Below are positions 11,616-41,743 of a DNA stretch of 64,000 nucleotides, one piece after another. The stretch is taken from positions 44,316-108,315 of the forward strand of contig MGTX01000006.1 of NCBI GenBank assembly GCA_001799675.1, read 5' to 3'. Both the position numbers and the translations under genes were made by a program. How positions within the stretch are numbered: position 1 is the first letter of the stretch; each line of letters begins with the position of its first letter. Under the pieces are notes generated by a model. The model ran no database searches. It saw nothing but the letters and a program-made list of their open reading frames with translations, and had not been told where the DNA came from. This stretch comes from Elusimicrobia bacterium GWA2_66_18 (GTDB lineage Bacteria; Elusimicrobiota; Elusimicrobia; UBA1565; UBA9628).

Positions 11616-12610
11616 GGCGTCAGCACCGCCTTCAGGATGCGCCGCGACTTCACGGCGTGAACGGCGTCGTCGAAGGCCGAGAGAGGAAATCGTTCGGGGT
11701 TGAGAGATAAAGGACCGAACTTCCCCGAGGCGATAAGCTCGAAGGCTTCCCTCAGGTCGACGAGGGAGGGGGAATAGGAGGCAATGACGGACAGTTCCCG
11801 GTGATAGACCTGATTTAAGTCGAGCTTCATCAAGGGGTCGGGATGAAAGGATGTGAACACGTTGAGGGCGCCTCCGTCCCGGAGCCAGCCCAGGGACGCT
11901 GCGACCAGGGCGGGCGTGCCCGCTGAGAAGATGACGGCGTCGAAGCCCCGGTTCTCGCTGGCGTTGCGGCCCGCCTGCGCGAACGCTTCCAGGTCGGTGA
12001 TTCCCGTCCCCCATCGCCCGAACGTCGCGGCGCGCGAGGCGTCCAAGTCCAAGCCCACGGGGCGGGCGCCGCGCAGCTTCAGCAGTTGCCCCGTCATCTG
12101 CCCCATCGCCCCCAGACCCACGACGGCGATCACGTCGCCCGGCCCGGCTTCCAGCCTCTTGACGTTGCGCAGCACGCAGGCCAGGGGTTCGGTCTGCGAG
12201 GCGGCGACGGGGTCCACGCCTTCCGGGACGCGGAAGGCGGCGCGGCGGGCGTGGAGGGCGGGCACGCGCACGAACTCGGCGAAGCCCCCGGGGGCGATGT
12301 TGGTGGCCTTGAACTGGCGGCACATGGACTCCTGCCCCTTGCGGCAATAGTGGCAGGTCAGGCAGGGGACGTGGTGGGAAACGACGACGCGCTCGCCGAC
12401 GCGGAAGGGGGCGTCCGCGTCGGCCTCGGCGACCAGACCGCAGAGCTCGTGGCCCAGCACCGCGTCTTGGGCGCGCGTGTCGAGCTTCATGATATCGGTG
12501 CCGCAGAGCCCGCAGACTTCGACCTTCAGCAGGAACTCGCCCGCGCCGATCCCGGGGACCGGGACCTCGCAGAGACGCGCGGCACCGTCGCGTGCCAGGA
12601 TGGCCTTCAT
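11612..12610 (-). CDS. second Zn-dependent alcohol dehydrogenase (MDR family), tandem to the first
   Basis: ORF 11612..12655; likely start MKAILARDGAARL (ATG ~12610) because the upstream ATG at 12655 would overlap divergent speA start; CGLCGTD, GHE, CxxCxxC motifs, GLGAMG Rossmann. Confidence 0.75.
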   Translation of the reverse strand: MKAILARDGAARLCEVPVPGIGAGEFLLKVEVCGLCGTDIMKLDTRAQDAVLGHELCGLVAEADADAPFRVGERVVVSHHVPCLTCHYCRKGQESMCRQFKATNIAPGGFAEFVRVPALHARRAAFRVPEGVDPVAASQTEPLACVLRNVKRLEAGPGDVIAVVGLGAMGQMTGQLLKLRGARPVGLDLDASRAATFGRWGTGITDLEAFAQAGRNASENRGFDAVIFSAGTPALVAASLGWLRDGGALNVFTSFHPDPLMKLDLNQVYHRELSVIASYSPSLVDLREAFELIASGKFGPLSLNPERFPLSAFDDAVHAVKSRRILKAVLTP

Positions 12611-12653
12611 AAAGAACTGCCAGGATGATAGAATATCTTTTACAATCTTCGCC
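12611..12653. promoter_or_regulatory. short divergent intergenic region between ADH-rib operon (minus) and speA (plus); AT-richer, contains TAGAAT-like -10 element
   Basis: Sequence aaagaactgccaggatgatagaatatcttttacaatcttcgcc is markedly AT-richer than surroundings. Confidence 0.3.
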
Positions 12654-14640
<1,987 letters not shown>

Positions 14641-14651
<11 letters not shown>

Positions 14652-16188
14652 CCGTCCCGCCGTTCGGGCGCTGCTCGCCCTCTCCGGCGCCGCCCTGCTC
14701 GTCGGCTGGATCTGGAGTCGCGCAGCTCCGTGCGGGGGATGGGAAAACTCCGTCTTTGGCTTCCGTCTTTGGAACGAGTCCGATCCGGGCGGATACTACG
14801 TCCCCAGCGCCCACGAGCTCGGCCGCTGGCGCGGACGTCTGCTCTACCCCGGCCACCCCGGGCTGACGCTGCAGGTCCTGCTGCGCGCCCTGCAGGAAAC
14901 CTACTTCCGCCTGCGAGCTCCGGCGGGCGCGTCCCTCGGTTTCACCGCCTTCACCGCGAAGAACATCGTGAGCGTATTCCTCCTTTCGAAGATGATGATC
15001 GCGTCGCTGCATGTCCTCTCTTTCTGGCTCTTCTTGCCGTTCGCGCGACGGCTTCTGTCCAGCGAGTTCGCATCGCTCCTCGCGGTCCTCGGGTACGCGA
15101 CCTCTCTTCCCGTCGTCTACTATCTCACTCGCGTCTCGGTGGAGCCGCTGATGGTCGTCTTCTTTCTCGCGGCGTTCCTCTGCGTCTGGCGCTGCGGCGA
15201 GGACTTGGAGTGCGGCCGACCGAGGAGGGCGATCCTCGACGGCGCGCTGTCCGGCGCGGCGGCGGCCGGAGCGCTCGCCACGAAGTTCCACCTGCTCTGG
15301 CCGCTTCCCGCGGTCTGCCTGCTGCACCTGTGGTGGGGCGATGGAGCGCGGCGGCAGCGGGGCCGCGGGCCGGCGGTCATCGGATTCATCGCGGGGGCGT
15401 CGGCGTCCTTCGCCTGGTATTGCCGGATCCTCGATTGGAGGGACTTTTTCGCCTATTGGGATGTGGGCGGCGCGGGAGGGCTCACCGTTCTCGGGGGCCT
15501 CGCGGCCCTCGTCCGCGGCGCGGCGCGCCTCCCGTTGGGGGAGTTGCTTCCGGCGCGGACGAGGTCGGGGCTCTTCCTCTTTTGCGAGTGGCCGCTGCTG
15601 GCGGCCGCGGCGTACGGCCTGTTCCTGGAGGTCCGGCGCCCCGACGCTCCCTGGGGCCGCTGGTTCTGGTTGGCGCTGGCCGGGAGCTACACCGTCTTGA
15701 TATGGGCTTACCGCTGCTTTGCGGTGAGCGGGGATTTTCACGGCTTCCATTATCTCTTCGTCTTCATCCTGCTGGCGTCCGTCTTTTTCGGCCGCGCCTG
15801 CGACGCCTTCATTGCGCGCCTGCCCTTCACGGCGCGTTGGCAGCGCGCCGCTGCGGCCGCGCTCTTCGTGGCCGTAAGCCACGCCATGGTCCTGGCAGCC
15901 GCCCGGGACGCTTACGCCTACGACGCCGCGCAATACGCCCGCATCCGGGCCTTCGGCTCGGCCCTGGCCGCGGCGCGGGCAGGGGAGCGGGTCGGCCTCG
16001 TCGGGAGAGTGGGCGCGCCCGTGTCCGTCCTTCTGGGCCTCGGCGTCCTGCGCGATTCGCAGCCGAGGCGCTCCGCTCTCATCGACGCGGTCGACGGCTC
16101 GTTCATTGCCGGAAACGCCGGCTCCGGTCCCACCGTGGAGATTTTCGAGGCCGGGGGGATGAAGTCGGCCCGCCGTCGGGGAGAGTAG
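14641..16188 (+). CDS. hypothetical polytopic membrane protein (possibly glycosyltransferase-like)
   Basis: 515 aa, >10 hydrophobic helices; start overlaps speA stop; no confident family assignment. Confidence 0.5.
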
Positions 16189-16281
16189 TTGCCGAGCCAT
16201 GCAGCGCGCGGATGCCCGGAGATTGCCTCAGAGCCTGGGACTTTTGCCGCGGTTTGCTAGGACTTTCGCCTCTCTCGCTCG

Positions 16282-17610
16282 GTGCGAGACTTGGTTATCA
16301 TAATGATGATGAAAATCCGACGAGGTCTCGCCGCCGTGCTTCTTGGGATTGCCGTTCCGGCATCGGCCGTGGTGGAAGCGCGTCCGGCGGCGGGCGTTCG
16401 GCCGGCGCCGGCGCTTGTCGCGTCGGCGCCGACGTTCGCGCTGCGCGCCGCCGCCGTCGCGCTGCCGGCGCCGGAGCCTCTTCTGAGCGCGCCGCCTGCC
16501 GAGGCATCGTTGCCTCCGGTCCAGGTGCGCGCGGCGGCGCTTTCCGGAGCGTTGGCCGAGTTCGCCCGTACGGATCTCCAGGAGGCGTCGTCGGTCGAAG
16601 TCCGCGACGCGGGCGACATCCTGATGCTGCGCGCGCTGGGCGCGGACGCGCTCGGCGCGGCGTCCGTCCCGGCCGCGCCCTCCGACTCCCCGGCGCCGCC
16701 GCTCGCCTTGCCGCAGCGGGTCTCGCGGCCCGCCGAGCATCGAATCTATCTGCTGTCGAAGCCTCTGCACGAGAAGATGCACCTCGGGCCGCTGTCGATT
16801 GCTTTTCACTTGACGTGGAGTATTTCCTTGGAAGTGGCCCAGGCGTTGTTCATTTGGAAGGAGACGGGCTCGCTGATAGCGCCGGCGACCACGTTCCTGC
16901 TCGGGCTGCCGTGGGCCCCGGCGTCGATCATGGGGCGCACTTCGGTGGACCTGGGGCTGCGCTACTGGAGACGCAAGCTCGCGGTGCTGCGCGAGCTCGC
17001 GCGGACGCCGGGCGTGGAGCGCCTGCGGGTGCTGACGACCGGAGACGTCGAGTTCCTCGGTCCGATCGCGCGGCGCAAGGACAACACGGGGTTGATCTTC
17101 GTCGAGGCTTCCTCAGAGCTTCCCCGGGAGTTCGGCCGTTTCGGCACGCCGATTCACATCGCGGATGTCGACACCCATCACGTGCGCATGACGCTCGTCG
17201 GCGCCCAGCAGCGCGCGGAGACGGACTGGACGCGGTCTCTCAGCGGGATGCTCGAAGGATGGCCGATCCCGCAGGAAACCGCGGCCGCGTGGAGGGAGGA
17301 ACACAAGCGTCTGAGATCCGCCGGCGCGAAAACGGCGCACTTCCGCGTGGAGGCGGTCTTGGTCGGTCCCGACGGGGAATCGCGCCCGCTCGGCGCGATC
17401 ATCCACGGTCCCGCGGTCAAGACCTTGATCGGCCTCGGGATATTGGATCGAGTGCTCTCGGGGCTCGGCCGGGGGCGGCTGTCCCGCCGGATCTCGATTT
17501 CGGATACCATCATCGAACGGCCGGGAGATTTAGTCGAATCCGGCTGGCAGGCGTCGCTTCGGCGCGCGTGGCGCCGGATTTCGGGGCGGCTGATCGTCGT
17601 CAAACCCTGA
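16282..17610 (+). CDS. hypothetical exported protein with Ala/Pro-rich N-terminal region
   Basis: Signal-like MMMKIRRGLAAVLLGIAVPASAVV; unknown ~300-aa C-terminal domain. Confidence 0.5.
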   Translation: MRDLVIIMMMKIRRGLAAVLLGIAVPASAVVEARPAAGVRPAPALVASAPTFALRAAAVALPAPEPLLSAPPAEASLPPVQVRAAALSGALAEFARTDLQEASSVEVRDAGDILMLRALGADALGAASVPAAPSDSPAPPLALPQRVSRPAEHRIYLLSKPLHEKMHLGPLSIAFHLTWSISLEVAQALFIWKETGSLIAPATTFLLGLPWAPASIMGRTSVDLGLRYWRRKLAVLRELARTPGVERLRVLTTGDVEFLGPIARRKDNTGLIFVEASSELPREFGRFGTPIHIADVDTHHVRMTLVGAQQRAETDWTRSLSGMLEGWPIPQETAAAWREEHKRLRSAGAKTAHFRVEAVLVGPDGESRPLGAIIHGPAVKTLIGLGILDRVLSGLGRGRLSRRISISDTIIERPGDLVESGWQASLRRAWRRISGRLIVVKP

Positions 17611-17620
17611 CCGAGTCTCC

Positions 17621-19987
17621 TTGATAAAGTTCTGGCTCTGCCTGGCGCTGGCCGTCTCGACCTCCGCCGCTTCCGCGGTTTCGGCGGCGCTCAACGCTCC
17701 GGCGCGGGGCGCGACGGCGCCCGGCGCCCTGCACGCCTCGCCGGTGTCGTCTTGGACGCCCGTCTTCGACGCTCCCCTGTCGAACGCCGCCTCGCTGCTT
17801 GTCGATACCAGCTTTTCTCCGATCTTGCGGGCCCTGGAACTGAAGGGTTGGACGCCTCGGGGCTATGCCGCCGCCGCCGAGGCCGTGAAGACCTCGGCCA
17901 TCGCCGAGGCCGTCGCCGCCGTCCGCGCGCAAGCCGCCGAGGAGGCCGCCCGCGCGTTGGCCGAGATCGCCCAAGCCGATCCCGCTTCGCCGGAGTATCC
18001 CATCCTCGCGGCCCGCCTCGCTCAGCTGGCCGGGCCGTTTTCCGGCTTCGTGCCCGACGAGCACCGCGCCGCCGTGCTGCTGGCCGCGCGCGCCGCCTCC
18101 GCCCGGATGGGGGCCGCAAAGAGCGAGAAGCTGGCGCGCTTAATCGAGACGATGCAGGAGAATCTAAGCCGCCCCGGGGAGCTTTTAGAGACGGCCGTCG
18201 AAGCATTCGTCGCCGACCTGGCCGACCCGCCGGCGCGCCTCATGACGCCGGGCGTGGCCAGGCTGCGCGAGGCCGGCGACCCCGTCCTCAAGGAGGCGCC
18301 GCCCCCGCCGTCGTCGGGCCTTGTTTTCGGCTCTAAGGTGGGTCTGCTGAAGACGCGTCAGGCCGCCGTCCGCCTCGTCGCGCGCGGCCTCTATCGTCCG
18401 CTGCTCGACGCCTTCCGCCTCGTGATGACCCGCGCCGGCGAGATCTGCCGCAAGTACATCTCCGGACGGGAGCAGGACAAGCATAATTTCCGCTGGAGCG
18501 TGCTGGAGTTCCTTCACCGGAAGGGCGACTTCCGCGGCTCCTTCGGCCATCCCGTCTATCAGGGCCAGCCCGAGATCATGTCGCCCGTGATCTTCAACGA
18601 GCCGAACCTGGAATCCCTGCGGACCCAGAAGCACGACCTGCGCGGCGCCCAGATATCCCCCATGCTCGGCATCTCGGGCATGAGCTTCCCCCAGCTTTCC
18701 GCTCAGTCGCACCTTTCCTTGCTCTACATCCATCTCAAGCTCGCCAAGGAGCAGGGAGCGCGCATCCTCTACAACACCGGCGAAGGCGGTCCGGGCCTCC
18801 TGCTCGGCCTGATGGAGGGCGACGCGGCCAAGATGAAAGCCGGCATCGTCGCTTGGAACACGGCCAACGGCCAGTTCCAGGCGGGCAGCTGGAACGAGGC
18901 CAGGATCGTCGCGCTCATCGACGTCTTGATGGCGCAGCGCCGGGCGCTCTTCGCGGAATTCTCCGCGGAGGACTTGGCGCGCGCCCAGATCGTGGCGCAG
19001 TTCGGTTCCGCGCTCAACGGCATTCGCCGCGACGACGCGGAGGGGCGCGTCGACTTCGACAAGCTGCGCCGCGTGGCGGCCAACCCGCATGTGGCCATGG
19101 TGCAGTACAAGCTCAAGCAGGCCGCCAAGCGCGGCGCCAAGATCGATCCGCGCAAAGTCAACGACATCGTGGCGGCATGGCGCGAGATCCCGCGCAACAG
19201 ATCTTTCAGGTCCCCCGAGCGCATCGCCGACATGCAGAGTTACGGGGAGATCGCCGCGCTGATCAAGGCCACCCGCTCCGTCTCCGCGAAGCCCGTCTCG
19301 CTCAAGTTCGGCATCGGCGACGCCGCGGACCTTCTGGATTTCATGCGCTTCCTGCGCGACGCCGACGCCCTGCCCGATCACCTCCAGATCGACGGCCGGG
19401 GCGACGATTTCTCTCCCGGCTCGGGCAACGCCCCGCCCGGCGCCAACACCAGCCTGCCCGCCAACGAAGCGGTCATCGTCATCGACGCCGTCCTTAAGAA
19501 GCTGGGCGCGCGCGACCGCGTCTTCATCGACGCCGGCGGCGATGTCATGCTTGCCGCCGAGGCCGTGGAGAGGCTGGTCCTGGGCGCCGACGGCGTCTGC
19601 GGCGCGCGCACCTGGATGGCGATGGGCTTGGGATGCTCGAAGGTGAAGGCCTGCGCCGACGGCAACTGCCCCTACGGCATCGCCTCCAGGAACGGCTCTC
19701 TCGTCGGCTTGGGCTTGGACCCGCAAGTCCTCGGCCCGAAGGGCTACGCGGCCGCCGCCAACTGGCAGAAGTCCTTCGTCCAGGCGCTCGTGGAAGCGGG
19801 GCTCACCGACTGGCGCAAGGCCCGCGCCGTGCTGGGCCTGGGCACGGGCTCCGCCGCGATCCGGATCAAGGACGGCGCCAAGACCGTCCCGCTCGACCGC
19901 TACTACTCGCCGCAATACGTGGCCGACCTTCTGCGCGGCGCTCTCACGCGGCAGGAAGTCGACCGCCTCGTCTTCGGCCGCCGCTGA
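17621..19987 (+). CDS. signal-peptide-bearing protein with C-terminal glutamate-synthase-type FMN-binding / 3Fe-4S domain (GltS_FMN family)
   Basis: N-terminus MIKFWLCLALAVSTSAASAVSAA; C-terminal half has YNTGEGGP, ...FSPGSGNAPPGANTSLP..., DAGGDVMLAAEAVERLVLGADGV and Cx5Cx4C (GCSKVKACADGNCPYGIA), matching the GltB FMN-domain / 3Fe-4S signature. Confidence 0.65.
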   Translation: MIKFWLCLALAVSTSAASAVSAALNAPARGATAPGALHASPVSSWTPVFDAPLSNAASLLVDTSFSPILRALELKGWTPRGYAAAAEAVKTSAIAEAVAAVRAQAAEEAARALAEIAQADPASPEYPILAARLAQLAGPFSGFVPDEHRAAVLLAARAASARMGAAKSEKLARLIETMQENLSRPGELLETAVEAFVADLADPPARLMTPGVARLREAGDPVLKEAPPPPSSGLVFGSKVGLLKTRQAAVRLVARGLYRPLLDAFRLVMTRAGEICRKYISGREQDKHNFRWSVLEFLHRKGDFRGSFGHPVYQGQPEIMSPVIFNEPNLESLRTQKHDLRGAQISPMLGISGMSFPQLSAQSHLSLLYIHLKLAKEQGARILYNTGEGGPGLLLGLMEGDAAKMKAGIVAWNTANGQFQAGSWNEARIVALIDVLMAQRRALFAEFSAEDLARAQIVAQFGSALNGIRRDDAEGRVDFDKLRRVAANPHVAMVQYKLKQAAKRGAKIDPRKVNDIVAAWREIPRNRSFRSPERIADMQSYGEIAALIKATRSVSAKPVSLKFGIGDAADLLDFMRFLRDADALPDHLQIDGRGDDFSPGSGNAPPGANTSLPANEAVIVIDAVLKKLGARDRVFIDAGGDVMLAAEAVERLVLGADGVCGARTWMAMGLGCSKVKACADGNCPYGIASRNGSLVGLGLDPQVLGPKGYAAAANWQKSFVQALVEAGLTDWRKARAVLGLGTGSAAIRIKDGAKTVPLDRYYSPQYVADLLRGALTRQEVDRLVFGRR

Positions 19988-19993
19988 GGTGAA

Positions 19994-20407
19994 ATGTTGA
20001 GGACTCCACTGCTCTGGATTGCCGCCATGCTCTTCCTGTGGGCGCCGTTCATGCTGCTCACGGGCGGCATCGAGGCCGCCCAGCGCCGCTACGTGCTGTG
20101 GAAGGGGACCCCGGCCGTGGGCGTGGTCACGGGCGTGTCCGCCGCCCGGAGCGGCCTGCGCGTGGACTTCTCATACCGGACGGCCGATGGCCGACAGAAC
20201 GACGGCTTCTCTCTCGTGGGCGGGAACAGTTTCGGCGCCGCGTTCAAGGGCCGCCCGGTGCTGATCCACTTCCTGCCCGCGCCGGACCCGCGGCTGGCCT
20301 CATCGGCCGCGCTCGACGACGACCTGGGCTTCGAGCGCTCCATCCTCATCCAGGCGGGATGTCTGATCGCCGCGGCCCTGCTCTTGCGACTGATGCGCCG
20401 CGCCTAG
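19994..20407 (+). CDS. small two-TM membrane protein (DUF3592-like topology)
   Basis: 137 aa; N-terminal and C-terminal hydrophobic helices flanking a soluble segment. Confidence 0.45.
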   Translation: MLRTPLLWIAAMLFLWAPFMLLTGGIEAAQRRYVLWKGTPAVGVVTGVSAARSGLRVDFSYRTADGRQNDGFSLVGGNSFGAAFKGRPVLIHFLPAPDPRLASSAALDDDLGFERSILIQAGCLIAAALLLRLMRRA

Positions 20408-21048
20408 GGGCTCTTGTCCCCCGGTTCCCCGCGCGGGGTGTTGTTCCAAAGGGACAGGACATAGTCGGCGAATTCCTGGGCCTCGCCCGGGGACTTGAAC
20501 TCCCGCGCGCGCATGAGGTGCGCCAGGACCTGGGAGGGGTGGCTCGCCAGCAGGATCATCTCGTTGACCGTGGCGGTCTCCTCGAAGCGGGGGTCCTCGA
20601 ACTGCTCGAGATTTTTGCGGGCGGCCTCATTGGCGGGCGCCAGGCCGAGGGCGCGCCGCCAGGAGAGGACGGCCTGGATCGTGTCTTTTCTCTCGAAATG
20701 GAGGTTGCCCCAGTCGAGATGGAGTTCGGAGAGCTCGCCCGTCTGCTCGGGCTGGTAGCCCGCTTCGGCCCGCCGCAGGCAGGCCTCGGCATCCCCGAGC
20801 CTGCCCGCGTCCAGCAGTTCCATCGCCTGGAGATGGTTGGCCCGCGCATGGGAGGGATCCGCCGCCAGTATCTTTTCGAGCTCCCGCTTCGCCTGCGCGT
20901 CTTTCTTGAGCATCCTGCAGACGCTGACATAGAGGCAGCCGTCCCGGGCGTCCCGCTCGCGCGGCGCGAGCAGCTCGAAAGCCTTCTCGAACTCGCCTTC
21001 GAGGGCGAACCGCTCGGCCGCCTCGAAGCCGCCGCCGTCCGCGCTCAT
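20404..21048 (-). CDS. TPR-repeat protein, translationally coupled to the giant activase-like gene
   Basis: 214 aa with TPR-like helical repeats; ATG overlaps stop of 21045..27140 gene (ATGA). Confidence 0.6.
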   Translation of the reverse strand: MSADGGGFEAAERFALEGEFEKAFELLAPRERDARDGCLYVSVCRMLKKDAQAKRELEKILAADPSHARANHLQAMELLDAGRLGDAEACLRRAEAGYQPEQTGELSELHLDWGNLHFERKDTIQAVLSWRRALGLAPANEAARKNLEQFEDPRFEETATVNEMILLASHPSQVLAHLMRAREFKSPGEAQEFADYVLSLWNNTPRGEPGDKSP

Positions 21049-24000
21049 CGGGTCCCCTTCGCCTGGCTCTGGGGGTCCATGTACTCCTTGGCCTGATAGA
21101 CGAGGGCCTCGGTGCGGGTCCGGACGTTCTTGAGGTTGCGCGATTCGCTCATGGACACGACCAAAGTCGGGAAATCGCGCTTATCGGGGGGCAGCCCGTT
21201 CTTCATCTTCTGGATCAGGCCCTCGTAGATGGTGTTGGGCAGGCACCCCGCGGGGCCGATCATGATCGCTCCGTCGGCGCCGTGCAGCGCGTACTCCTCC
21301 ATGGCTCCCAAGGTCAGGGGGCCCTCGCCGGACGAGAATTGACCCGTATGCTTGACTCCGTGCCGGATGACGTTCTTGACGTCACGGCCGCGCCCGAACT
21401 CCTTGCGCTGGATCCCCCGGCGCAGCACGCGGTAGATCTTGTCGTCGTATAATCTCAGGAAGCCCTTGCCCGCGAAATAGCCGAGCAGGGACTTGAGTCC
21501 CTTGAACCTGAAGAAATCGCGCCAGCCCATGGTCTCCAGGGGAGAGCCGAATTCGAGGCCGTTGTAGACGAACTCGTTGAAGGGCGCCAGGAACACCTCG
21601 GCGCCCTGGGCCTCGAGTTGGCGGATGATATCGCCGTTGGCGTAGTCGTTCATCCTCAGATAGATCTCCCCCACGAGGCCGATGAGGGGTTTGCGCTGGG
21701 TGCGGTCCTGCGGGACGCCGCGTATCTCCGCGACGAAGCGCTCGAGCGTGGTCAGGAGCTTCCTCTCGTTGCCCATCGCCTCCGCGGCCTCGCGCAGGTA
21801 TTTTTGGTAGACGAGCTCCGTCAGCTTGACCTTGCGCAAATAGTCGGGCGCGGAGGCGTTGATCTGATCCATGTAGTCGCCCAGCACCTGCCTGCCTCCC
21901 GCGAGGATTTCCAGCTTCTTGCGGGCCGAATCCTCCGTGTGGATCTCGTAGGGCCTGTTTTCAAGCAGGAGCTGGTGCAGATAGTCGCCGATGAGAAAGG
22001 ACTTCCAGATGTTGACGGTCAACCGCAAGGACGGGACGAAATGGTTGGGCACGGCGGGGGACTTGGAGCGCCCGGCGAGGTTGGCCACGCGCAAGCCGGG
22101 GAAGCCCGCCTCGCGGAGGCTCGTCTCCAAGGCGCTGGTGTATTGGCTGAAGCGGCAGCTCCCATTGCTCTTGTAGAACATGACCGCGATGTCCCCGGGC
22201 TTGGTCCCGGCCTTGATCTGCTCGCGGATGCCGACGATGGCCTCTCCCATGAGCACGGGGTAGGGCAGGCACTCCTTGCCGTTGGAGTATTTCCTGCCCT
22301 CATCGAGCGCGGCGTCCGTGGCGGGCTTGAAGGCCTCGGCGTCGATTCCCGCGGCCCGCAGCGCCCCTGCCAGAACGACGATGTGGTCCGACATCCTGGG
22401 GATGAAGGTCTTCTTGCCCTTGAGCTCCTCCAGGGTGAGGAATTCCATGGGCTTGGGCGCGGGCCGGCCCGAGGCGGCGAACGCCTCGGCGGTCTCCGCC
22501 TTCTCGATAGTCCTCTGGGCCGCCTCGTTGGCGAGCTTGATGGAGGTGATGTAGGCGTCGATGCGGGTCTTGAAGCCGGCGGCGCTCGTGTGCTCGTCGA
22601 TCTCGAGAACGAGCAGGGGCTTGCCCGCGGCGCGACAGCGCGCCTCCAGCTTCTTGATGATGTAGGCGTCCGGGCCGCAGCGGAAGGGCGTGATGTAGAC
22701 GGGATAGAGGTCGGGGTCGTCGGCGACGATCTCGGCCGCCTGGAGGATCTTGCCCTGGTAGTACCAGGTGTCATCGGCCGCCATGTGGGGGTCGCGGCGA
22801 CCCTCCTCCAGGGCGAGGAAGTCCATGGGCAGGGCCTGCCAGCCGTGCTTGCGCACCTCTCGGGGCACGCCCATGTTCAGCCCGCCGTCGAGGCTGCTGT
22901 AGGGGCGGGAAAGGAAGACGACGCCCTTTTGCCCCTGCTCTCGCATCTCGGACAGGGCCTTGGCGCCCTCCGCGCGCTGAGCCTTGCGGAAGTCCTCGGC
23001 CGCCCGCTCGGCCGCGTCGAAGGCGCGCCGCACCTCGCCGCGGGGCAGCCCGATCCCCGCCCCGAAGCGTTCGAACTGCTCGAGGATTTCCTCGCGCGGC
23101 ACGCTCAGGTCGAGTTCGGGGCTCAAGAACCGCTTGCCGTGCTCCTCAGGATTGAAGACGCCCTTGAGGGCGTAGGGGGCGCCCGTGACCTGGGGGCAGG
23201 GCGAGGCGTGCTTGGAGGCGGGGTTGAACGGCTTGAGCTCCAGGAGGACGGGCAGGAAGATGTCCGTCACCCCCTCCTTCTGCAGAAGGTCGGCCACCAT
23301 GCCGTACAGCATCTTCATCGGCAGGCAGGGGTCGATGTTGAGGTGCTGCTTGGCCAGATCCAGGATATGCTTGTCGCTCGTGCGCGAGGCCACGACCTCG
23401 AAGCCCGCGGCGTTGAAGAAGGCGTGCCAGAAGGGGAAGTTCTCCCAGAAGTTGAGGCCCGCGGGAAAGCCGATGACGCGCCCGTCCCGGGTCTTGATGC
23501 CGGCGGCGGGGACGGCGGAAGGAGCGGGCCGTCCTCCGGCCGCGAGAGTCTTGGCCCAGAGCGTGAAACGCTCTCGGAGGGAGGCCTTCGCGGACGGCGG
23601 CGCGGCCTCGCCCGCGAGATAGTCCTTGGTCAGCAGCTCGTGCCTCCGATGCAGCAGGTCCGGGAGATTATCGGAAAGGCGCTTGAGCTCCTTGGGGATG
23701 CTCTTGTCATGCAGGTCGCAGTTCGGCCCGTAGACCAGCTTCTTGCCTTCCGGGGTCACCAGGTACATGAGCTGGCATTGGTTGGCGCAGGCCGCGCAGC
23801 GCTTGCCCTTGACGACCTCCGTCGGGATGAAGCCCGCCGAAAGCCCGCGGAACTTCGTGGCGACGAGCTTGGCCGCCTCGGGCAGGGAAGCGTCGGCCAG
23901 TTTGTTCTCGTAGCGAGTCTTGGCGATGAGGGCCATCCCGATGGCGCCCATGACCTCCGCGTGCTCCGGGACTTCGACCGGTTTGCCCGTGAGCGCCTCG

Positions 24001-27000
24001 AGGGCGGCGACCACGGCCTTGTTGTTGGAGACCCCGCCCTGGAACACGATCTTCCGTCCCACGGCTTTGCCGCCCTTGACCTTGTTGAGATAGTTCTTGG
24101 CGATGGAGTAGGCAAGCCCCGCCGAGATATCCTCGGGGGTGTAGCCCTCGGCCTGGGCCTGGACGATGCGGGACTTCATGAAGACGGTGCAGACCTCGCC
24201 CAAGTCCGCGGGCGACATGGCCCGCAGGGCGGAATCGCCGAGTTCCTCCACCATGACGCCGAGGACCCGGTCGGCGGCCTCGTCGAAGAAGGAGCCCGTG
24301 CCCGCGGCGCAGGCCTTGTTCATCTCGAAATCCTCGATCATGCCTTTCATCACGCGCATGAATTTCGAGTCCTGCCCCCCGATCTCGATGATGGTGTCGG
24401 CGTCCGGATGCAGCCGCCCCACGGCCGTGGCGTGGGCGTTGATCTCGTCGACGACCGCGTCGGCCCCGACCATGGCGCCCATGGCCTCGCGTCCGGAGCC
24501 GGTGACCCCGACGTGGAGGATGCGGATGCGGGAGCCCAGCTTGTCGCGGATATCGTGGATGCCCCTTTCCATGACCGCGAAGGGCTGGCCCTCGGTCCTG
24601 ACGTAATCCTTATGAAGGACCGCCTCGGTCTTGGCGTCGATGAGCACGAACTTGGTCGTGGTGGAGCCGACGTCGAGGCCGAGGAATACGTCACGGACCT
24701 CGCCCTCCTTGAACTGATACGGCGTCCAGGTCTTCTCGAGCCGCCGCGGGTCGCGCAGCCGCAACTGGGGCAGGGCGCTGGTGACCGTGCGGTTGGCGAC
24801 GAAGTCCTTGAGCTTGGCGAGCCCCTCGACGAGGGCACTGCGGTCGAGCATGCGTCCCTCGGCCAGATTCCGGGCCGCGAACATGGCCGCCCCCTGCGCG
24901 ATGCGTATCTCCGGGAAGTCGGGCACGATGAGCCGGGCGGGGTCTATGCCCTTCTTCTGCAGGAGCCTCTTGAAAGCCTCCACCAGGACGCGGTTCTTGG
25001 AGGTCCCGCCCTGGAAGATGATGATGCCGTCGCCGGCCATTCCCCTCTTGACTTCGCCCACCAGATTCATGAGGTAGGTGAGAACGATGGTGTTGTGCAC
25101 CCCCCAGGCAACGAGCTCCTTGGGCAGGTTCTCATGGCGCAGCAGATGGGTGATATCGGTCTTTGCGAAAACCGTGCAGCGGCCCGCGATCTCGGGCGGC
25201 ATCTTGTCCACGGCGGTCCACGCCCCGTCGATCATCGCCAGGAGCTTGTCGAAGCCCAGGCGGGCCACCTGCTCCTCGAGGAAGGTGCCCGTCCCGGCCG
25301 CGCACTCGCCGTTGAGGGCCGTCTTCTTGAGCTTGCCGTCGGCGCCGAGGTGGATGTACTTGGAATCCTCGCCGCCGATTTCGAAGATGTGCGTGTCCTT
25401 ATTGAGATGGCCGTACTGCTCCAAGATGGGGGCGGTCTGGGAGATGACCTCGTTGGTGTAGCGGATGTTGACCTGCCCTTTCTTGCCCTCTGCGCCGTAG
25501 CGCCCTTCGAGCGCCAGGTCGATGTAGCCGGCCAGCTTCTCGGAGACCTTCTGTCCGGCCGATCCGGAAAAGCCGATATTGACGACCTCCTGGTCCTTGA
25601 AGCGCTCCAGGACGGACTCAAGGAGCAGCGCCGACATCTCGTAGACGCGGGCGTGGTGCTTCTGGTAGGTGCCGTGGACGATGTTTCCGGCTTCGTCGAG
25701 GACGAGGGTCTTGGCGGTCGTCGATCCGCACTCCACGGCGATGCGCACCGTGGCGCCCTTGGGAAGGGTGACGGGGTCGCCGAAGCCGGCGAGGCCCTCC
25801 ACCCGGCCGCCCAGCTCGATGACCGGGGCGGCGCGCTTACGCTCCGCCGGCGGGTCGCTCACCGGGGGGGCCGCCGCCGGCGGCGCGGGCTGGGGCTTCT
25901 CCGAGATGAGGGAGGCCGTCGGTTTAATCGGGATGGACGCCGCGGGCGCCGCCGCCGCCCCGTCCGCAAGCAGCCTGCGGCGGCGTCGCGCCAGAAGCTC
26001 CAGGAAGAGGACGGCGCCGAGAGCGCAGAGCACGGCGACGATGAGCGGAAGACCGCGTTCGACGGGGAGCTTTGCCATCGGGACGCTCACCGCCGCGCCG
26101 AGAGCGCCGGCGGCCGCCGGAACGGCCGAGAGGGAGGGGCCGAACGTCCTCTTCTCGTTGACGGCGTCCCTCAGGGATGCCGCGAGGCGCGTGACGCGCG
26201 TATAGAAGGACGGCAGTCCCCTGGTGATGGAGGCCGCGTTAAAGGCGGCCCGGAGTTGAAGGCCTAGGCGGCTCAGAAGGCCGCCGGCCCAGACCGCGGG
26301 CTTGCCGCTTGCGGCCCGCCGGCTCGCGGCCGCCGGATCGATCACGGCGTGAGACGCCTCAGAGACGGACTTCTCCTGGGTGGCGCGCGGGTCCCAGGCC
26401 GTCTGCAGGCTCGAGGCGAGGATCCCGGACGCATCGGCCGGCGACACTCCGGCATCGACGATATTGTCCTCGTGCGTGACGCCGGACAAGACGTCCGCCC
26501 GTTCGATGGGTTTATTGAGGGCGGAGGCCGTCAGCGTCAGGGAGGAGGCGACCTTCCCCTGCCGCGCCTTGCGCGCCGCCACGGCGGCCTTCTCCAAATT
26601 CGGCAGGACCCGCCGCAGGCGCTCGGCGTTCCTCGACGAGAGGAAGACGGCCTTCTCCGACAGGACGTCCCGGGCCCAAGTCAGGGTCCGTTCCAGGTCG
26701 CCGTCGGCCAGGCTTCCAGACTCGAACCGGGCGACGATTCCGTCCACGAAGGCGTTGGACTCGCGCTCCTCGACGCGGGCGGCTTGCGCGAGCATTTCGA
26801 CGCGGCGCTCCTGCCTCGCGCTCAAAAAGGCTTCCGGGCTGAGGGTGGGATGAACGGTCCCGATCCTGAGCGCGAGGCGGCGGATCGCGAAAGGGCGCGC
26901 CGTCAAACCGTCCGGGGAGGCCAGGAGGCTGAGGGAGCCGAGTTTGAGGCCGGAGAGCGCGTCCGGCCCCATTTGCGCGATGGCGGCGGAAATGGCGCCG

Positions 27001-27140
27001 TTCCAGGCCGCCTGGCCGGCCTCCGCGGAGGCCGCCCCGCGCGGACCGGCGAAGCCGCCGCACCTCCCCGCGCAGGGAGCAAGGAGGGCCGCGCTCAGCA
27101 ACGCGGCCGAGAGACATCGTGTCATGGTGCTGGGTATCAT
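21045..27140 (-). CDS. giant (2031 aa) membrane-anchored protein: N-terminal signal peptide + ~360-aa unknown region + TM helix, then two BadF/BadG/BcrA/BcrD (HgdC-type) activase ATPase domains and a large C-terminal hydroxyacyl-CoA-dehydratase-like / DUF2229-like region
   Basis: ATPase 1: VRIAVECGSTTAKTLVLD...IFEIGGEDSKYIHL...NGECAAGTG; ATPase 2: VFLGLDVGSTTTKFVLID...IIEIGGQDSKFMRV...NKACAAGTG; Cys-rich linker CAACANQC...NCDLHD; TM helix LPLIVAVLCALGAVLFLELLARRRRR at aa ~364-385. Confidence 0.75.
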   Translation of the reverse strand: MIPSTMTRCLSAALLSAALLAPCAGRCGGFAGPRGAASAEAGQAAWNGAISAAIAQMGPDALSGLKLGSLSLLASPDGLTARPFAIRRLALRIGTVHPTLSPEAFLSARQERRVEMLAQAARVEERESNAFVDGIVARFESGSLADGDLERTLTWARDVLSEKAVFLSSRNAERLRRVLPNLEKAAVAARKARQGKVASSLTLTASALNKPIERADVLSGVTHEDNIVDAGVSPADASGILASSLQTAWDPRATQEKSVSEASHAVIDPAAASRRAASGKPAVWAGGLLSRLGLQLRAAFNAASITRGLPSFYTRVTRLAASLRDAVNEKRTFGPSLSAVPAAAGALGAAVSVPMAKLPVERGLPLIVAVLCALGAVLFLELLARRRRRLLADGAAAAPAASIPIKPTASLISEKPQPAPPAAAPPVSDPPAERKRAAPVIELGGRVEGLAGFGDPVTLPKGATVRIAVECGSTTAKTLVLDEAGNIVHGTYQKHHARVYEMSALLLESVLERFKDQEVVNIGFSGSAGQKVSEKLAGYIDLALEGRYGAEGKKGQVNIRYTNEVISQTAPILEQYGHLNKDTHIFEIGGEDSKYIHLGADGKLKKTALNGECAAGTGTFLEEQVARLGFDKLLAMIDGAWTAVDKMPPEIAGRCTVFAKTDITHLLRHENLPKELVAWGVHNTIVLTYLMNLVGEVKRGMAGDGIIIFQGGTSKNRVLVEAFKRLLQKKGIDPARLIVPDFPEIRIAQGAAMFAARNLAEGRMLDRSALVEGLAKLKDFVANRTVTSALPQLRLRDPRRLEKTWTPYQFKEGEVRDVFLGLDVGSTTTKFVLIDAKTEAVLHKDYVRTEGQPFAVMERGIHDIRDKLGSRIRILHVGVTGSGREAMGAMVGADAVVDEINAHATAVGRLHPDADTIIEIGGQDSKFMRVMKGMIEDFEMNKACAAGTGSFFDEAADRVLGVMVEELGDSALRAMSPADLGEVCTVFMKSRIVQAQAEGYTPEDISAGLAYSIAKNYLNKVKGGKAVGRKIVFQGGVSNNKAVVAALEALTGKPVEVPEHAEVMGAIGMALIAKTRYENKLADASLPEAAKLVATKFRGLSAGFIPTEVVKGKRCAACANQCQLMYLVTPEGKKLVYGPNCDLHDKSIPKELKRLSDNLPDLLHRRHELLTKDYLAGEAAPPSAKASLRERFTLWAKTLAAGGRPAPSAVPAAGIKTRDGRVIGFPAGLNFWENFPFWHAFFNAAGFEVVASRTSDKHILDLAKQHLNIDPCLPMKMLYGMVADLLQKEGVTDIFLPVLLELKPFNPASKHASPCPQVTGAPYALKGVFNPEEHGKRFLSPELDLSVPREEILEQFERFGAGIGLPRGEVRRAFDAAERAAEDFRKAQRAEGAKALSEMREQGQKGVVFLSRPYSSLDGGLNMGVPREVRKHGWQALPMDFLALEEGRRDPHMAADDTWYYQGKILQAAEIVADDPDLYPVYITPFRCGPDAYIIKKLEARCRAAGKPLLVLEIDEHTSAAGFKTRIDAYITSIKLANEAAQRTIEKAETAEAFAASGRPAPKPMEFLTLEELKGKKTFIPRMSDHIVVLAGALRAAGIDAEAFKPATDAALDEGRKYSNGKECLPYPVLMGEAIVGIREQIKAGTKPGDIAVMFYKSNGSCRFSQYTSALETSLREAGFPGLRVANLAGRSKSPAVPNHFVPSLRLTVNIWKSFLIGDYLHQLLLENRPYEIHTEDSARKKLEILAGGRQVLGDYMDQINASAPDYLRKVKLTELVYQKYLREAAEAMGNERKLLTTLERFVAEIRGVPQDRTQRKPLIGLVGEIYLRMNDYANGDIIRQLEAQGAEVFLAPFNEFVYNGLEFGSPLETMGWRDFFRFKGLKSLLGYFAGKGFLRLYDDKIYRVLRRGIQRKEFGRGRDVKNVIRHGVKHTGQFSSGEGPLTLGAMEEYALHGADGAIMIGPAGCLPNTIYEGLIQKMKNGLPPDKRDFPTLVVSMSESRNLKNVRTRTEALVYQAKEYMDPQSQAKGTR

Positions 27141-27268
27141 GGCAAGTAGGATACCCCGGGCCCCGGGCCTGAGGCTAGGGCCCTATTGCCCAAACCAGAC
27201 GGACCAATCAGCCCAATAAAACGTGGGTCCGATTCGAGGATTCCTTAGGACCACTCGCTCAGGGCGGC

Positions 27269-28171
27269 TTATGTGCGGTAGCCGAATTCCTCGAGCGACC
27301 TCTGGTCCTTGCGCCAGTCCTTGCGGACCTTGATCCAGAGCTCGAGGATCACGGGGCGGCCTAGGAAGTTTTCGAGCGCGGCCTGGGCGCGTTCGGTCAA
27401 ACTCCGCAGGTCCTTTCCGGACTTGCCGATGATGATGCCCTTCTGCCCGTCGCGTTCCACATAGAGCGTGGCGAAGACCTCGTCAGGCCGGCCCTTCTTC
27501 TGATGATGCTCGCGGAAGGTTTCCACGACCACGGCGGTCGCATGCGGGATCTCGTCGTGATAGAGCGCGAAGACCTGCTCGCGCACGATCTCGGCGGCGA
27601 AGAAGCGCTCCCAGCGGTCGGAGAGCCGGCCTTTCTCGTAGAAGGGAGGGTTCTCGGGCAGTCGCGCGAGGATCTCCGCCTTGAGCTCATCGACTCCCGC
27701 GCCCTTGAGCGCGGAGATGCGCAAGACTTGGTCGGGCTTGAGCGCGGCGGAGTAGGCCGCCTCGAGGGCCGCCACCCGAGCTTCCGACACGACCCGGTCG
27801 CACTTGTTGAGGGCGAGCAGGACCGGGACTCCCGAGCGCAGGGGGGAATGGATGACGTCGCCGGGATCGGCCTCGGCGACGTCGACGAGATAGACGACGA
27901 GGTCGGCATCTTCGCGGATGGCGCGGGAGGCCTCCACGCGCAGGGCCTTCTGGAGCGGGTCGGCGGGCTTCTCGATGAGCCCCGGCGTGTCGAGGAAGCA
28001 GGCCTGGAAGCCCGGGCCCTCGAGTATGCCGAGCACGCGGTGGCGCGTGGTCTGGGGCTTGTGCGAGACGATGGAAAGCTTGAACTTCAGGAGGCTGTTG
28101 AGCAACGTGGACTTGCCCACGTTGGGCAGCCCCGCCAACGCCACGAAGCCGGCCTTATGCGCGCTTTCCAT
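27269..28171 (-). CDS. era: GTPase Era
   Basis: [12 protein letters not shown] (G1), DTPG (G3), NKCD (G4), C-terminal KH domain (GKSGKDL...). Confidence 0.92.
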
Positions 28172-29020: not shown

Positions 29021-30130
29021 TTGATAGGCCTCTACGTTCACATCCCGTTCTGCGCGGTGAAGTGCTTCTACTGCGATTTTGCCGCCTTTTCGGGGCAGAA
29101 TAAGCAGGTGGACCGCTATCTCGCCGCCCTCGCAAGTGAGGCCGCCCTCAGGGCCCCGCATGCGCCCGACACGCTCTATGTGGGCGGCGGCACGCCCTCC
29201 GAGCTCTCCGCCGGGCAAATCGACGACCTCTTCGCGCGCCTGCGCCGCGCCTATCCCGACGCGCGCCTCGTTGAGACGACCTTCGAGGCGAACCCCGAGA
29301 GCCTCGACGAGGAGAAGCTGGCGGTTCTCGCCCGTTCCGGCGTGACGCGGCTCTCCATCGGATTGCAGACGGCTGATGACGCCCTATTGAAGGCCATCGG
29401 GCGTCGTCATAAGGCCGCGGATTTCGCGCGCGTGCTGCGCGCCGCGCGAGCGGCCGGCATTCCCGCTCTGTGCGTGGACTTGATGTACGGTCTGCCCGGC
29501 CAGACGCTGGACGGCCTTGGTTCCACTCTCGACTCCGTCCTGTCTTTGGAGCCGGAGCATATATCCTTGTACGGCCTCCAGGTCGAGGATCGAACCATCT
29601 TCGCCAAGCGCGGCGTGGAGGAAGATCAAGATATGGGCCGGGAGATGTATCAACTCGCCATCGCGGCGCTCTCCCGCGCGGGCCTGGAGCACTACGAAAT
29701 CTCGAACTTCGCGCGTCGCGGGCGCCGCTCCCGGCACAATCTCAACTATTGGGACCGCGGCGAATATATGGGGCTGGGATGTTCGTCGGCCTCCTTCCTG
29801 GGCGGGGTGCGATCCTCCAACGAGGAGAAGATCGTCCCCTACATGACGGCCGTGGAAGCCGGCCGGCGTCCTACTGCCGAGACCGAGGCCCCCGCGGGCC
29901 TTGAGGCGCTGGGCGAAGAGGCTTTCCTCGGCCTGCGTCTGCTGGAAGGCTTCGTTCCTTCGAAGCAGACGAGGGAATCTTTCGCCGGTCCTTGGGCCGC
30001 GCTCAAGGCTCGGGGTCTCGCCCGCGAAGACGGCTCCCGCTGGCGCCTGACCGGCGAGGGCGTGTTCCTCGCCAACGAAGTCTTCAAAGAGTTTATTCCG
30101 CCGTTCCCTCGCCAGGAGGCGACTGCATGA
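29021..30130 (+). CDS. hemW: radical SAM heme chaperone HemW (HemN-like, oxygen-independent coproporphyrinogen-III oxidase family)
   Basis: MIGLYVHIPFCAVKCFYCDF (CxxxCxxC radical-SAM motif), 369 aa. Confidence 0.85.
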   Translation: MIGLYVHIPFCAVKCFYCDFAAFSGQNKQVDRYLAALASEAALRAPHAPDTLYVGGGTPSELSAGQIDDLFARLRRAYPDARLVETTFEANPESLDEEKLAVLARSGVTRLSIGLQTADDALLKAIGRRHKAADFARVLRAARAAGIPALCVDLMYGLPGQTLDGLGSTLDSVLSLEPEHISLYGLQVEDRTIFAKRGVEEDQDMGREMYQLAIAALSRAGLEHYEISNFARRGRRSRHNLNYWDRGEYMGLGCSSASFLGGVRSSNEEKIVPYMTAVEAGRRPTAETEAPAGLEALGEEAFLGLRLLEGFVPSKQTRESFAGPWAALKARGLAREDGSRWRLTGEGVFLANEVFKEFIPPFPRQEATA

Positions 30131-36122: not shown

Positions 36123-36893
36123 TCAGCGCTTACGGCCCTTCCTGGACTTGGCGTAGGCCAGCATGTCGGCCTCGACTTTTTCAAGCAGGCCGTCGCCGAT
36201 CTCCCAGACCTCCAGGCCCTTGAGCCTGGCCTCGATCTTGCGCGCAAGCGCGTCATCGATGAAGGGCGTGACCTTGCCCTTCTTGTACTCGGCCTCCTTC
36301 TCGGCGTAGAGGCCGAGGAAGGTCTTGTCGCGAAACCACGCTTCGCGGTTGGAGGATGCTTCCAACCGGCGGAGGAGCTCCGGGCTCGGGTCGCGCTGGA
36401 CGAACTCGAAGAAGACGGCCGTCGGGCGGCCGCCCGGAACCATCCACTCGCCGCTGAAGACCTGGATCAGGTCCTCTTCGGCGTCCTTGAGCACCGGCGT
36501 GATGAAGTTGACGCCGCGATCCAAAGCATAGCGATGGAACGACGGCAGATCGGGAGTTCGCAAAGCGATATGCTGCCAGTGGCCGCCCCCGCCCCGGTTC
36601 TTGAGCATCGTGCGGACATGAGAGCCCCGCCCCTTGGGCTCCGTGGGCTGGACCACCGCGACGATGGTCTGCGCGGGCGCGCGCGCGTCATCGGCCGCGC
36701 CCAGGCGCGAGGCGAAGGTCATGGAGGCGGGCTTCTTCTGTCCGGGCCAGTCGGAGCGTTTCTCGTAGATCAGGTCCTCGCGGGTCACCCCGAAGATGAC
36801 GCGGAAGAGCGCGTAGGTCGTCTTGTACAGGTCGGGCTCGACGAGGAAGGTCATGTGGTCGACGACGAAGTTGTGGAAAGGCTGCTTTTTCAT
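36123..36893 (-). CDS. VOC-family dioxygenase-like protein resembling (short) 4-hydroxyphenylpyruvate dioxygenase
   Basis: FVVDHMTFLV (N-terminal VOC His), GGGGHWQHIALRTPDL and GGRPTAVFFEFVQR resembling HPPD motifs GxQHIAL / RPTLFFEIIQR; only 256 aa (canonical HPPD ~350 aa). Confidence 0.55.
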   Translation of the reverse strand: MKKQPFHNFVVDHMTFLVEPDLYKTTYALFRVIFGVTREDLIYEKRSDWPGQKKPASMTFASRLGAADDARAPAQTIVAVVQPTEPKGRGSHVRTMLKNRGGGGHWQHIALRTPDLPSFHRYALDRGVNFITPVLKDAEEDLIQVFSGEWMVPGGRPTAVFFEFVQRDPSPELLRRLEASSNREAWFRDKTFLGLYAEKEAEYKKGKVTPFIDDALARKIEARLKGLEVWEIGDGLLEKVEADMLAYAKSRKGRKR

Positions 36894-39758: not shown

Positions 39759-39780
39759 ATCCCCGGCTCGGTCTTAGCCG

Positions 39781-40437: not shown

Positions 40438-40449
40438 CGGCTGGAGATT

Positions 40450-41442: not shown

Positions 41443-41446
41443 GCGG

Positions 41447-41737: not shown

Positions 41738-41743
41738 GGGAAA

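Follow-up and report, generated by a model that had tools for sequence, protein, structure and literature searches.

A window of 64,000 nucleotides from Elusimicrobia bacterium GWA2_66_18 (contig MGTX01000006.1, positions 44,316 to 108,315), which is the whole stretch of DNA that we analyzed and to which all coordinates below refer, carries on its minus strand a giant gene whose 2031-amino-acid (aa) product is recorded at NCBI as a "hypothetical protein" (OGR49216.1). Its C-terminal three quarters resemble PlsA-PlsR and Ger, the enzymes that reduce ester bonds of membrane glycerolipids, and its first 460 residues form an extension with a predicted membrane anchor. The gene and its parts, with model confidence given as the predicted local distance difference test (pLDDT) of AlphaFold2, are as follows.

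21045..27140 (stop included), minus strand: giant PlsA-PlsR/Ger-like gene with putative membrane anchor, a complete open reading frame (ORF) with ATG start, 2031 aa
27066..27140, minus strand: signal-peptide-like N-terminus (aa 1-25), with R8, the hydrophobic stretch CLSAALLSAALLAP, then CAG
26553..27035, minus strand: all-helical domain (aa 36-196), predicted extracytoplasmic, pLDDT 67-88
26082..26552, minus strand: Ala/Ser/Arg-rich region (aa 197-353), pLDDT <50, probably flexible
25971..26051, minus strand: single transmembrane (TM) helix (aa 364-385) with RRRRR (aa 386-390), putative stop-transfer anchor
25776..25970, minus strand: Pro/Ala-rich linker from anchor to enzyme (aa 391-455), 25% Ala and 18% Pro, pLDDT <50
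24876..25733, minus strand: ATPase (activase) module 1 (aa 470-755), BcrAD_BadFG PF01869, E 1.3e-22, candidate cluster ligands C613 (CAAGTG) and C655 (CTVF)
23922..24683, minus strand: ATPase (activase) module 2 (aa 820-1073), PF01869, E 3.7e-46, candidate cluster ligands C944 and C984
23718..23798, minus strand: C-x2-C-x3-C...C motif (C1115, C1118, C1122, C1141; aa 1115-1141), putative metal site (Zn or Fe-S)
22506..23495, minus strand: catalytic half 1 (aa 1216-1545), DUF2229 with an HGD-D-like tail, invariant C1272, C1315 and C1488
21066..22433, minus strand: catalytic half 2 (aa 1570-2025), equivalent to PlsR and homologous to half 1, invariant C1624, C1662 and C1966

The giant ORF is a real, intact gene. 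It is found on contigs of at least four independent groundwater metagenome assemblies (at least one of them labelled as groundwater), and the 8.2-kb region around it is 100% identical in three other assemblies, a fourth having the same region save for 121 bp within a neighbouring gene that encodes a tetratricopeptide repeat (TPR) protein. Moreover, two other sequencing runs yielded an orthologue (P0173, loci L092/L093) with 92.5% nucleotide identity; it is uninterrupted over the whole ORF, preserves the signal-like N-terminus as well as the helical domain, TM helix and linker, and its indels relative to the window are all in-frame. Because of these identical assemblies and of the intact, in-frame P0173, a frameshift or assembly artefact at the origin of the giant ORF is ruled out: the check for an in-frame stop or frameshift that the initial annotation had called for revealed none in the four assemblies and P0173. 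The start is most simply placed at the ATG at 27140, a Met common to the window and P0173 with an in-frame stop directly upstream; M6, the start chosen by one gene caller, is not conserved in P0173, and the NCBI record uses a later start. A third relative (contigs L006/L007) likewise bears the N-terminal extension, and the TM anchor is present in three related populations; its use as a 75%-identical relative was discarded given that these contigs are full of indel errors, and the clean orthologue P0173 was used in its place. The valyl-tRNA synthetase (ValRS) gene of the window agrees with an assignment to this phylum. The giant gene is absent from the syntenic position in Elusimicrobia with 80-86% ValRS identity, and no orthologue above 32% identity was found outside the protein's own 90% cluster in a collection of 5.8 billion proteins.

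The enzyme part begins with two BadF/BadG/BcrA/BcrD-type ATPase modules, which had been proposed from their motifs and are recovered by Pfam (PF01869, twice) and NCBIfam (TIGR00241, twice), the motifs GSTTAK, GSTTTK, EIGGEDSK, EIGGQDSK and CAAGTG all being found in the translation. Module 1 scores 81 bits against PF01869, versus 158 bits for module 2, and its phosphate-1 loop (25722-25745, aa 466-473) reads VECGSTTAK where the family consensus is LGLDxGSTTVK. Sequence matches in the PDB, namely the HadI activator 4eht (E 3e-32), MbdQ 9gai_D and HgdC 1hux (range E 1e-29 to 1e-32), are confined to these modules. Both modules retain the two activator cysteines (CAAGTG and CTVF), as in HgdC/HadI-type activator ATPases ("archerases"), ASKHA-fold proteins in which two Cys of each protomer bridge a [4Fe-4S] cluster across the dimer, and by analogy the tandem modules of a single chain may represent the "dimer" of those activators, with a bridging [4Fe-4S] cluster. 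The Cys-rich linker noted earlier downstream of the modules is likewise genuine, as the family-invariant motif C1115-x2-C1118-x3-C1122...C1141, and is modelled as short beta-hairpins at low confidence.

As for the large C-terminal region described in the initial annotation as DUF2229/dehydratase-like, DUF2229 (PF09989) is indeed detected at aa 1223-1441 (E 4e-50, 175 bits vs. a cut-off of 29.4), together with weak HGD-D matches at aa 1483-1532 (E 0.027) and aa 1953-2014 (E 0.27). Half 2 shows sub-threshold DUF2229 and HGD-D matches only in Pfam, and hhalign aligns aa 1205-1545 with aa 1570-2025 at a probability of 98.8% (E 4.8e-16), the cysteine triplet C1272/C1315/C1488 falling on C1624/C1662/C1966. 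The catalytic part is an internally duplicated pair of the kind seen in 2-hydroxyacyl-CoA dehydratases (HAD) and benzoyl-CoA reductases (BCR), with 3+3 invariant cysteines. C613/C655, C944/C984, the four-cysteine motif and both triplets do not vary in alignments of 27 and of 18 homologues, and 14 of the 15 core cysteines are invariant across the family. Since the two halves are homologous, with aligned invariant cysteines, and are accompanied by the ATPase modules, the giant protein reads as a complete activase-plus-reductase in a single chain, and the cognate reductase that had been reported missing from the neighbourhood would be the protein's own C-terminal half.

Similarity to homologues sets in at query aa ~455-467 and extends to the C-terminus. 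A GTDB scan with the core alignment returned at least 600 relatives, mostly from taxa known as anaerobes and including Nitrospirota, Thermodesulfatator, Anaerolineae, Syntrophobacterales, Desulfobacterales, Acidobacteriota, Clostridia and Collinsella/Coriobacteriales; the best 80 are 25-35% identical over core residues 2-1570 of 1577. Several of the closest (Acidobacteriota, KSB1 and Gaiellales, 33-35% identity) are split into genes of ~1030 aa and 310-470 aa. The initial annotation had regarded such proteins as functionally uncharacterized, which does not hold: the PlsA-PlsR plasmalogen synthase and the Ger glycerol ester reductase, characterized in 2021-2022, share this architecture, and their reduction of the sn-1 ester of membrane glycerolipids was demonstrated via heterologous expression. 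Plasmalogens were made in Escherichia coli by PlsA/PlsR of Clostridium perfringens and by the single-gene PlsA of Enterococcus faecalis, Lactococcus cremoris and Bifidobacterium longum subsp. suis, and the verified single-gene plsA span 4,248-4,920 bp (4,920 bp in B. longum subsp. suis), that is, ~1415-1639 aa as calculated from these published lengths versus 1577 aa for the core described here. Ger, or "modified PlsA," of Thermotoga maritima and Desulfatibacillum alkenivorans gives 1-O-alkyl glycerol ethers, and its Pfam pattern consists of two BcrAD_BadFG modules, DUF2229 and then small DUF2229/HGD-D matches. Pls orthologues have been reported in Coriobacteriales, Clostridiales and other Firmicutes orders, and Ger homologues in Thermodesulfobacteria and the sulfate reducer D. 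alkenivorans; Ger is described as widespread in anaerobes, including Deltaproteobacteria, Nitrospirae, Acidobacteria and Elusimicrobia, and a published screen applied thresholds of E <= 1e-50 and >= 30% coverage against T. maritima Ger.

Compared with fused PlsA (E. faecalis EF1327/Q835P9, L. cremoris, B. longum subsp. suis), the giant protein shares the two tandem BcrAD_BadFG modules followed by two reduction/dehydration domains on one chain, the conserved Fe-S cysteines and a core of similar size; it differs in that the published descriptions of fused PlsA mention no signal peptide, TM helix or N-terminal extension, and it is ~26-28% identical to homologues from the same taxa. The C. perfringens operon (Q8XL48/Q8XL47) has the same modules, PlsR corresponding to half 2, whereas the giant protein unites them all in a single chain and has an extra membrane module at its N-terminus. 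With Ger (T. maritima Tmari_0479/AGL49404 and D. alkenivorans SHJ90043, compared by published description), it shares the Pfam architecture, and its best GTDB matches come from the same phyla, although no membrane anchor is described for Ger. The more remote HadBC/HadI, HgdAB/HgdC, BzdNO/BzdPQ, MbdONQP and DCCP/DCCP-R systems (DCCP being the double-cubane cluster protein, which binds an [8Fe-9S] cluster in a HAD-like fold and has a separate ATPase, DCCP-R) share the ATPase modules (HadI, HgdC, MbdQ) and the 3+3 cysteine pattern; however, their solved structures show the ATPase and the catalytic part as distinct soluble subunits, they act on CoA thioesters or small molecules, and their catalytic part is 9-15% identical to that of the giant protein. 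Shared full-length homologues at E ~1e-130 or lower provide an indirect link to PlsA and Ger, and the enzyme part most likely belongs to the fused PlsA-PlsR/Ger type.

We thus favor, with a probability of roughly 0.6, the view that the giant protein is a membrane-tethered enzyme of the PlsA/Ger type, converting sn-1 acyl esters to vinyl or alkyl ethers at the inner leaflet. According to this scheme, the signal-peptide-like start would take aa ~26-360 through Sec, and the TM helix 364-385 with its RRRRR would stop the transfer, as hydropathy and charge suggest, leaving residues 391-2031 in the cytoplasm on a Pro/Ala tether of ~65 residues at the inner membrane. The two ATPase modules would form an intramolecular pseudo-dimer with one bridging [4Fe-4S] cluster held by C613/C655 and C944/C984, a proposal that draws on residue conservation and on the HgdC/HadI paradigm. 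As in the BCR/HAD family, a ferredoxin or flavodoxin may reduce this cluster, and ATP hydrolysis would then drive an electron into the catalytic part, where the duplicated HAD/BCR-like pair (aa 1216-1545 and 1570-2025) would accept it. By comparison with PlsA/PlsR and Ger, the most likely substrate is a membrane glycerophospholipid, whose sn-1 acyl ester would undergo reduction and dehydration to give a vinyl ether (plasmalogen) or be processed further to a saturated alkyl ether; sequence cannot tell which, and according to the Ger authors the determinants of the two products are unknown.

Several points weigh against this assignment. Membership of the PlsA/Ger family is drawn from architecture, fold, size and shared homologues, and an identity of 25-35% to every homologue marks a divergent member whose substrate could differ. 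In module 1, a Glu replaces the Asp of the family phosphate-1 loop, and this Glu is kept in P0173. No lipid-biosynthesis genes were found near the giant gene. The PlsA family is oxygen-sensitive, though used by facultative anaerobes, and oxygen or nitrate respiration is predicted for related lineages of groundwater Elusimicrobia; in the window itself, 36123-40449 (minus strand) holds an ORF that matches the N-terminal domain of homogentisate 1,2-dioxygenase weakly and in part (E 4e-10), a fumarylacetoacetase-family hydrolase and a haloacid dehalogenase-type hydrolase, and a true dioxygenase there would imply O2-dependent catabolism of aromatic amino acids beside an oxygen-sensitive enzyme. An anchor may not be needed at all, as all other family members are without one, and the near-neutral extension may add nothing beyond it. 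Finally, the function of the signal peptide and the topology are predictions from hydropathy and charge.

Some of these points lend weight to a different substrate, namely that the fold and electron injection are as described and the protein is a divergent ATP-dependent reductase of the BCR/HAD/DCCP type acting on a small molecule, with an anchor that serves another purpose, such as proximity to a membrane-bound electron donor. The low identity to any homologue, the neighbourhood devoid of lipid genes and a likeness to characterized PlsA/Ger drawn from architecture and shared homologues all speak for it. Nonetheless, we consider it unlikely, for the literature surveyed reports sn-1 ester reduction (PlsA, Ger) alone for the fused single-chain architecture, and DCCP, HAD and BCR systems keep their ATPase and catalytic subunits on separate chains in solved structures. 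In addition, homologues from taxa reported to bear pls or ger match the core from end to end and share all family-invariant cysteines, and a membrane tether suits a membrane-lipid substrate.

What sets the giant protein apart from this family is its N-terminal extension. Consistent with the initial annotation, an extension with a single TM helix followed by RRRRR is real, and neither extension nor TM helix occurs in any of 127 homologues (47 from databases and 80 from GTDB). The hydrophobic stretch after R8 comprises 14 residues with a mean hydropathy of 1.95 and is kept in P0173; the LAPC sequence in this N-terminus is not a canonical lipobox. Over the 2031 residues, strongly hydrophobic 19-residue windows (>=1.6 on the Kyte-Doolittle scale) occur at aa 358-386 only, peaking at 2.75, with five Arg on the C-terminal side versus two Lys/Arg on the N-terminal side. 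From this hydropathy and charge distribution we infer a type I orientation (N-out, C-in), with aa ~26-360 outside the cytoplasm. The putative exported segment (aa 24-353) is made up of 20% Ala, 11% Leu and 10% Ser, and the confident part of the AlphaFold2 model is limited to the helical domain (aa 40-195), the low-confidence stretches being aa 197-355 and 397-460. No Pfam match was found in aa 1-460, and a Foldseek search of the N-terminal model against the PDB returned nothing significant, generic helical bundles only.

To look for relatives of the extension, aa 1-460 were searched exhaustively with HMMER against 1.84 billion cluster representatives, a library incomplete for this lineage, as the protein's own cluster (P0001/P0173) was not returned. 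Three matches emerged: a fragment of a close relative, P0050 and P0051. P0050 was rejected as spurious, being a eukaryotic repeat that matches the TM and Arg segment only. P0051, in contrast, is a standalone, uncharacterized protein of 467 aa (Logan assembly ERR15087788, contig of 1570 bp) that is 34-41% identical to parts of aa 36-182 over ~90-150 aa (pairwise E 2e-7), has the motif AGQxAAWxGxI...LKLxSLSxLAxPGL in common with the helical domain, and resembles the extension in its signal-like start, its homologous helical domain and its C-terminal hydrophobic segments; it differs from the giant protein in having no enzyme fused, and its similarity lies at the margin of significance in the library-wide search (E 7e-4). 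No homologue of the extension is encoded in the flanks of the 80 GTDB family members. Two metagenome scans with the extension and a GTDB scan with the full protein gave no confirmed match, and a word-index search with aa 1-462 gave no match and is uninformative, having also missed its own entry (low-complexity, Ala-rich query); because searches with this Ala-rich extension missed the query's own database entries, their negatives are weaker than they appear. Within these searches, incomplete library included, the extension is seen in one narrow clade of groundwater Elusimicrobia only. The most economical history is that the gene of a P0051-like membrane protein, once separate, was joined in frame to one of the PlsA/Ger type.

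Selective constraint along the protein, estimated as the ratio of nonsynonymous to synonymous substitution rates (dN/dS) by the Nei-Gojobori method between the window and P0173, is distributed as follows.

Core, aa 461-2031: dN/dS 0.30, 93.0% aa identity
Extension, aa 1-353: dN/dS 0.78, 83.5% aa identity
Helical domain, aa 36-196: dN/dS 0.73, 88.8% aa identity
Ala/Ser/Arg-rich region, aa 197-353: dN/dS 1.09, 78.2% aa identity
TM region, aa 354-395: dN/dS 0.79, 69.0% aa identity
Linker, aa 396-460: dN/dS 1.45, 72.3% aa identity

The extension is held in frame yet weakly constrained, a pattern more in keeping with an anchor or spacer than with a precise sensor. Because its sequence is so weakly constrained, its main selected role is probably to anchor the enzyme beside its lipid substrate. 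The initial annotation, which had presented a novel exported extension, was right as to its existence and its absence from the homologues examined, and the dN/dS of 0.78 tempers the idea of an elaborate new exported machinery.

The values around or above 1 for aa 197-353 and the linker could also indicate that translation begins internally, at M354 or near aa 455, with aa 1-353 being a separate or untranslated remnant in a stop-poor genome of 67% GC, where long spurious ORFs are frequent. In line with this, no clear Shine-Dalgarno sequence precedes the ATG at 27140, and a gene caller chose the Met equivalent to M354 in the contig of a relative, although the contigs behind that call are those full of indel errors. 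We find an internal start decidedly improbable. GC content at third codon positions is 0.84-0.93 in frame from codon 1 across aa 1-460, equal to that of the enzyme part; every indel that separates the extension of the window from that of P0173 has a length divisible by three, and no stop interrupts ~460 codons at ~10% divergence; the ATG at 27140 is the conserved Met with an in-frame stop just upstream; and aa 36-196 are modelled as a folded helical domain, in the same order of signal peptide, helical domain and TM segment as in P0051, whose start resembles that of the giant protein. With an internal start, the coding character of ~1.1-1.4 kb of sequence would have no explanation.

Least probable of all is that the helical domain is a periplasmic sensor or interaction module regulating the cytoplasmic enzyme across the membrane, as in sensor kinases: a helical-bundle-like domain (pLDDT 67-88) predicted to lie outside the membrane, with a single TM helix connecting it to the enzyme in the cytoplasm, the TorS and PilJ periplasmic sensor domains among the non-significant fold matches and the recurrence of the domain in the standalone membrane protein P0051 would agree with it, but those matches have E >0.9 and are mostly generic four-helix bundles, the dN/dS (0.73 in the domain, ~1 in the remainder of the extension) is ill-suited to a finely tuned sensor, a fast-evolving Pro/Ala linker of 65 residues is a poor conduit for a conformational signal, and the domain is restricted to one narrow clade. 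Ether-lipid synthesis under transmembrane control, cued by envelope stress or periplasmic redox/oxygen and with the TPR protein in the complex, strikes us as similarly far-fetched; if true, it would be the first such member of the BCR/HAD superfamily.

Returning to the tethered PlsA/Ger-type enzyme, its gene is flanked as follows.

20404..21048, minus strand: TPR protein, 214 aa, with an ATGA stop/start overlap with the giant gene
27141..27268, minus strand: intergenic spacer of 128 nt that separates era from the giant gene, presumably holding the giant gene's own promoter

The ATGA overlap had been pointed out beforehand and is conserved: in the relative represented by locus L092, the TPR gene is 95.6% identical at the aa level and the 4-nt overlap is kept, because of which the TPR protein is probably functional. 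It passes the TPR_14 cut-off (24.9 bits vs. 23.5), falls just under that of TPR_2 (25.0 vs. 27), is without a signal peptide and is presumably cytoplasmic; well conserved and translationally coupled to the giant gene, it probably serves as an assembly or scaffolding partner. A broader co-occurrence of extension and TPR protein among homologues, which the initial annotation had suggested examining, was not found: the flanks of the 80 other family members, PlsA-type homologues included, contain neither. As a separate observation, in scaffold ANAN16 (SAMN03202999; L004:7755-7873), 119 non-matching bases replace 121 bp of the TPR gene (window 20638-20758) and the TPR gene is uncalled; either a gap left by scaffolding or strain variation might explain this.

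No consistent adjacent membrane-protein partner was found across the 80 family loci. At one locus (L008:4252-5004), a 250-aa membrane protein of the PF06541 family (ABC_trans_CmpB/DUF1113) overlaps by 4 nt with the start of P0007, a PlsA-like protein of 1664 aa, and such a neighbour may be another route to membrane placement of the enzyme.

On the other side, era does lie 128 nt upstream of the giant gene, as first described, but the adjacency is incidental. Homology with the relative begins at window position 27267, just inside the stop codon of era (27269-27271), and the relative has a different upstream gene; since synteny breaks at this stop codon, the position beside era carries no meaning. 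A scan of 27141..27268 revealed no sigma-70-like site on the minus strand. More broadly, a comparison of window 12351-28171 with L010 and L011 delimits a segment of ~13 kb between an arginine decarboxylase gene (12351-14651) and a PhoH-like gene preceding ValRS. It contains three ORFs without Pfam match, a protein with a Glu_synthase domain, the TPR gene, the giant gene, era, a Band_7 gene and a radical S-adenosylmethionine (SAM) gene. In Elusimicrobia bacterium RBG_16_66_12, the corresponding flanking genes lack this segment between them, and another relative has a PAP2_3 gene after era instead. This segment is a variable chromosomal region. Within it, the plus-strand block 14641-20407, convergent with the giant and TPR genes and co-conserved in L092, encodes ORFs of 515, 442 and 137 aa without Pfam match and a 788-aa protein with a Glu_synthase (PF01645) domain only. 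The radical SAM gene (29021-30130) was considered as a synthase of membrane-spanning lipids and rejected, its product being HemN/HemW-like. Farther away, at 41372-44059 on the plus strand, an ORF of at most 895 aa combines a Ham1/ITPase domain (aa 138-323) with an extensive array of TPRs, a fusion also present in a relative (L011:20315-22625).

PlsA and Ger underlie anaerobic plasmalogens and bacterial alkyl ether lipids, and ether lipids bear on the debate on the "lipid divide" and on biomarkers such as the precursors of branched glycerol dialkyl glycerol tetraethers (brGDGT). The enzyme family is known; its unusual feature here is a fast-evolving segment of exported type and a membrane anchor fused to its front. 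The significance of this fusion is limited by its restriction to one narrow clade and its almost neutral evolution. Still, a natural variant that is covalently tethered, as predicted here, bears on how a large soluble Fe-S enzyme gains access to an ester bond buried at the membrane interface; it would support the notion that the family acts directly on membrane-resident lipids and could be a useful construct for localization or structural work. If the assignment is correct, it would also extend candidate ether-lipid capacity to high-GC groundwater Elusimicrobia.

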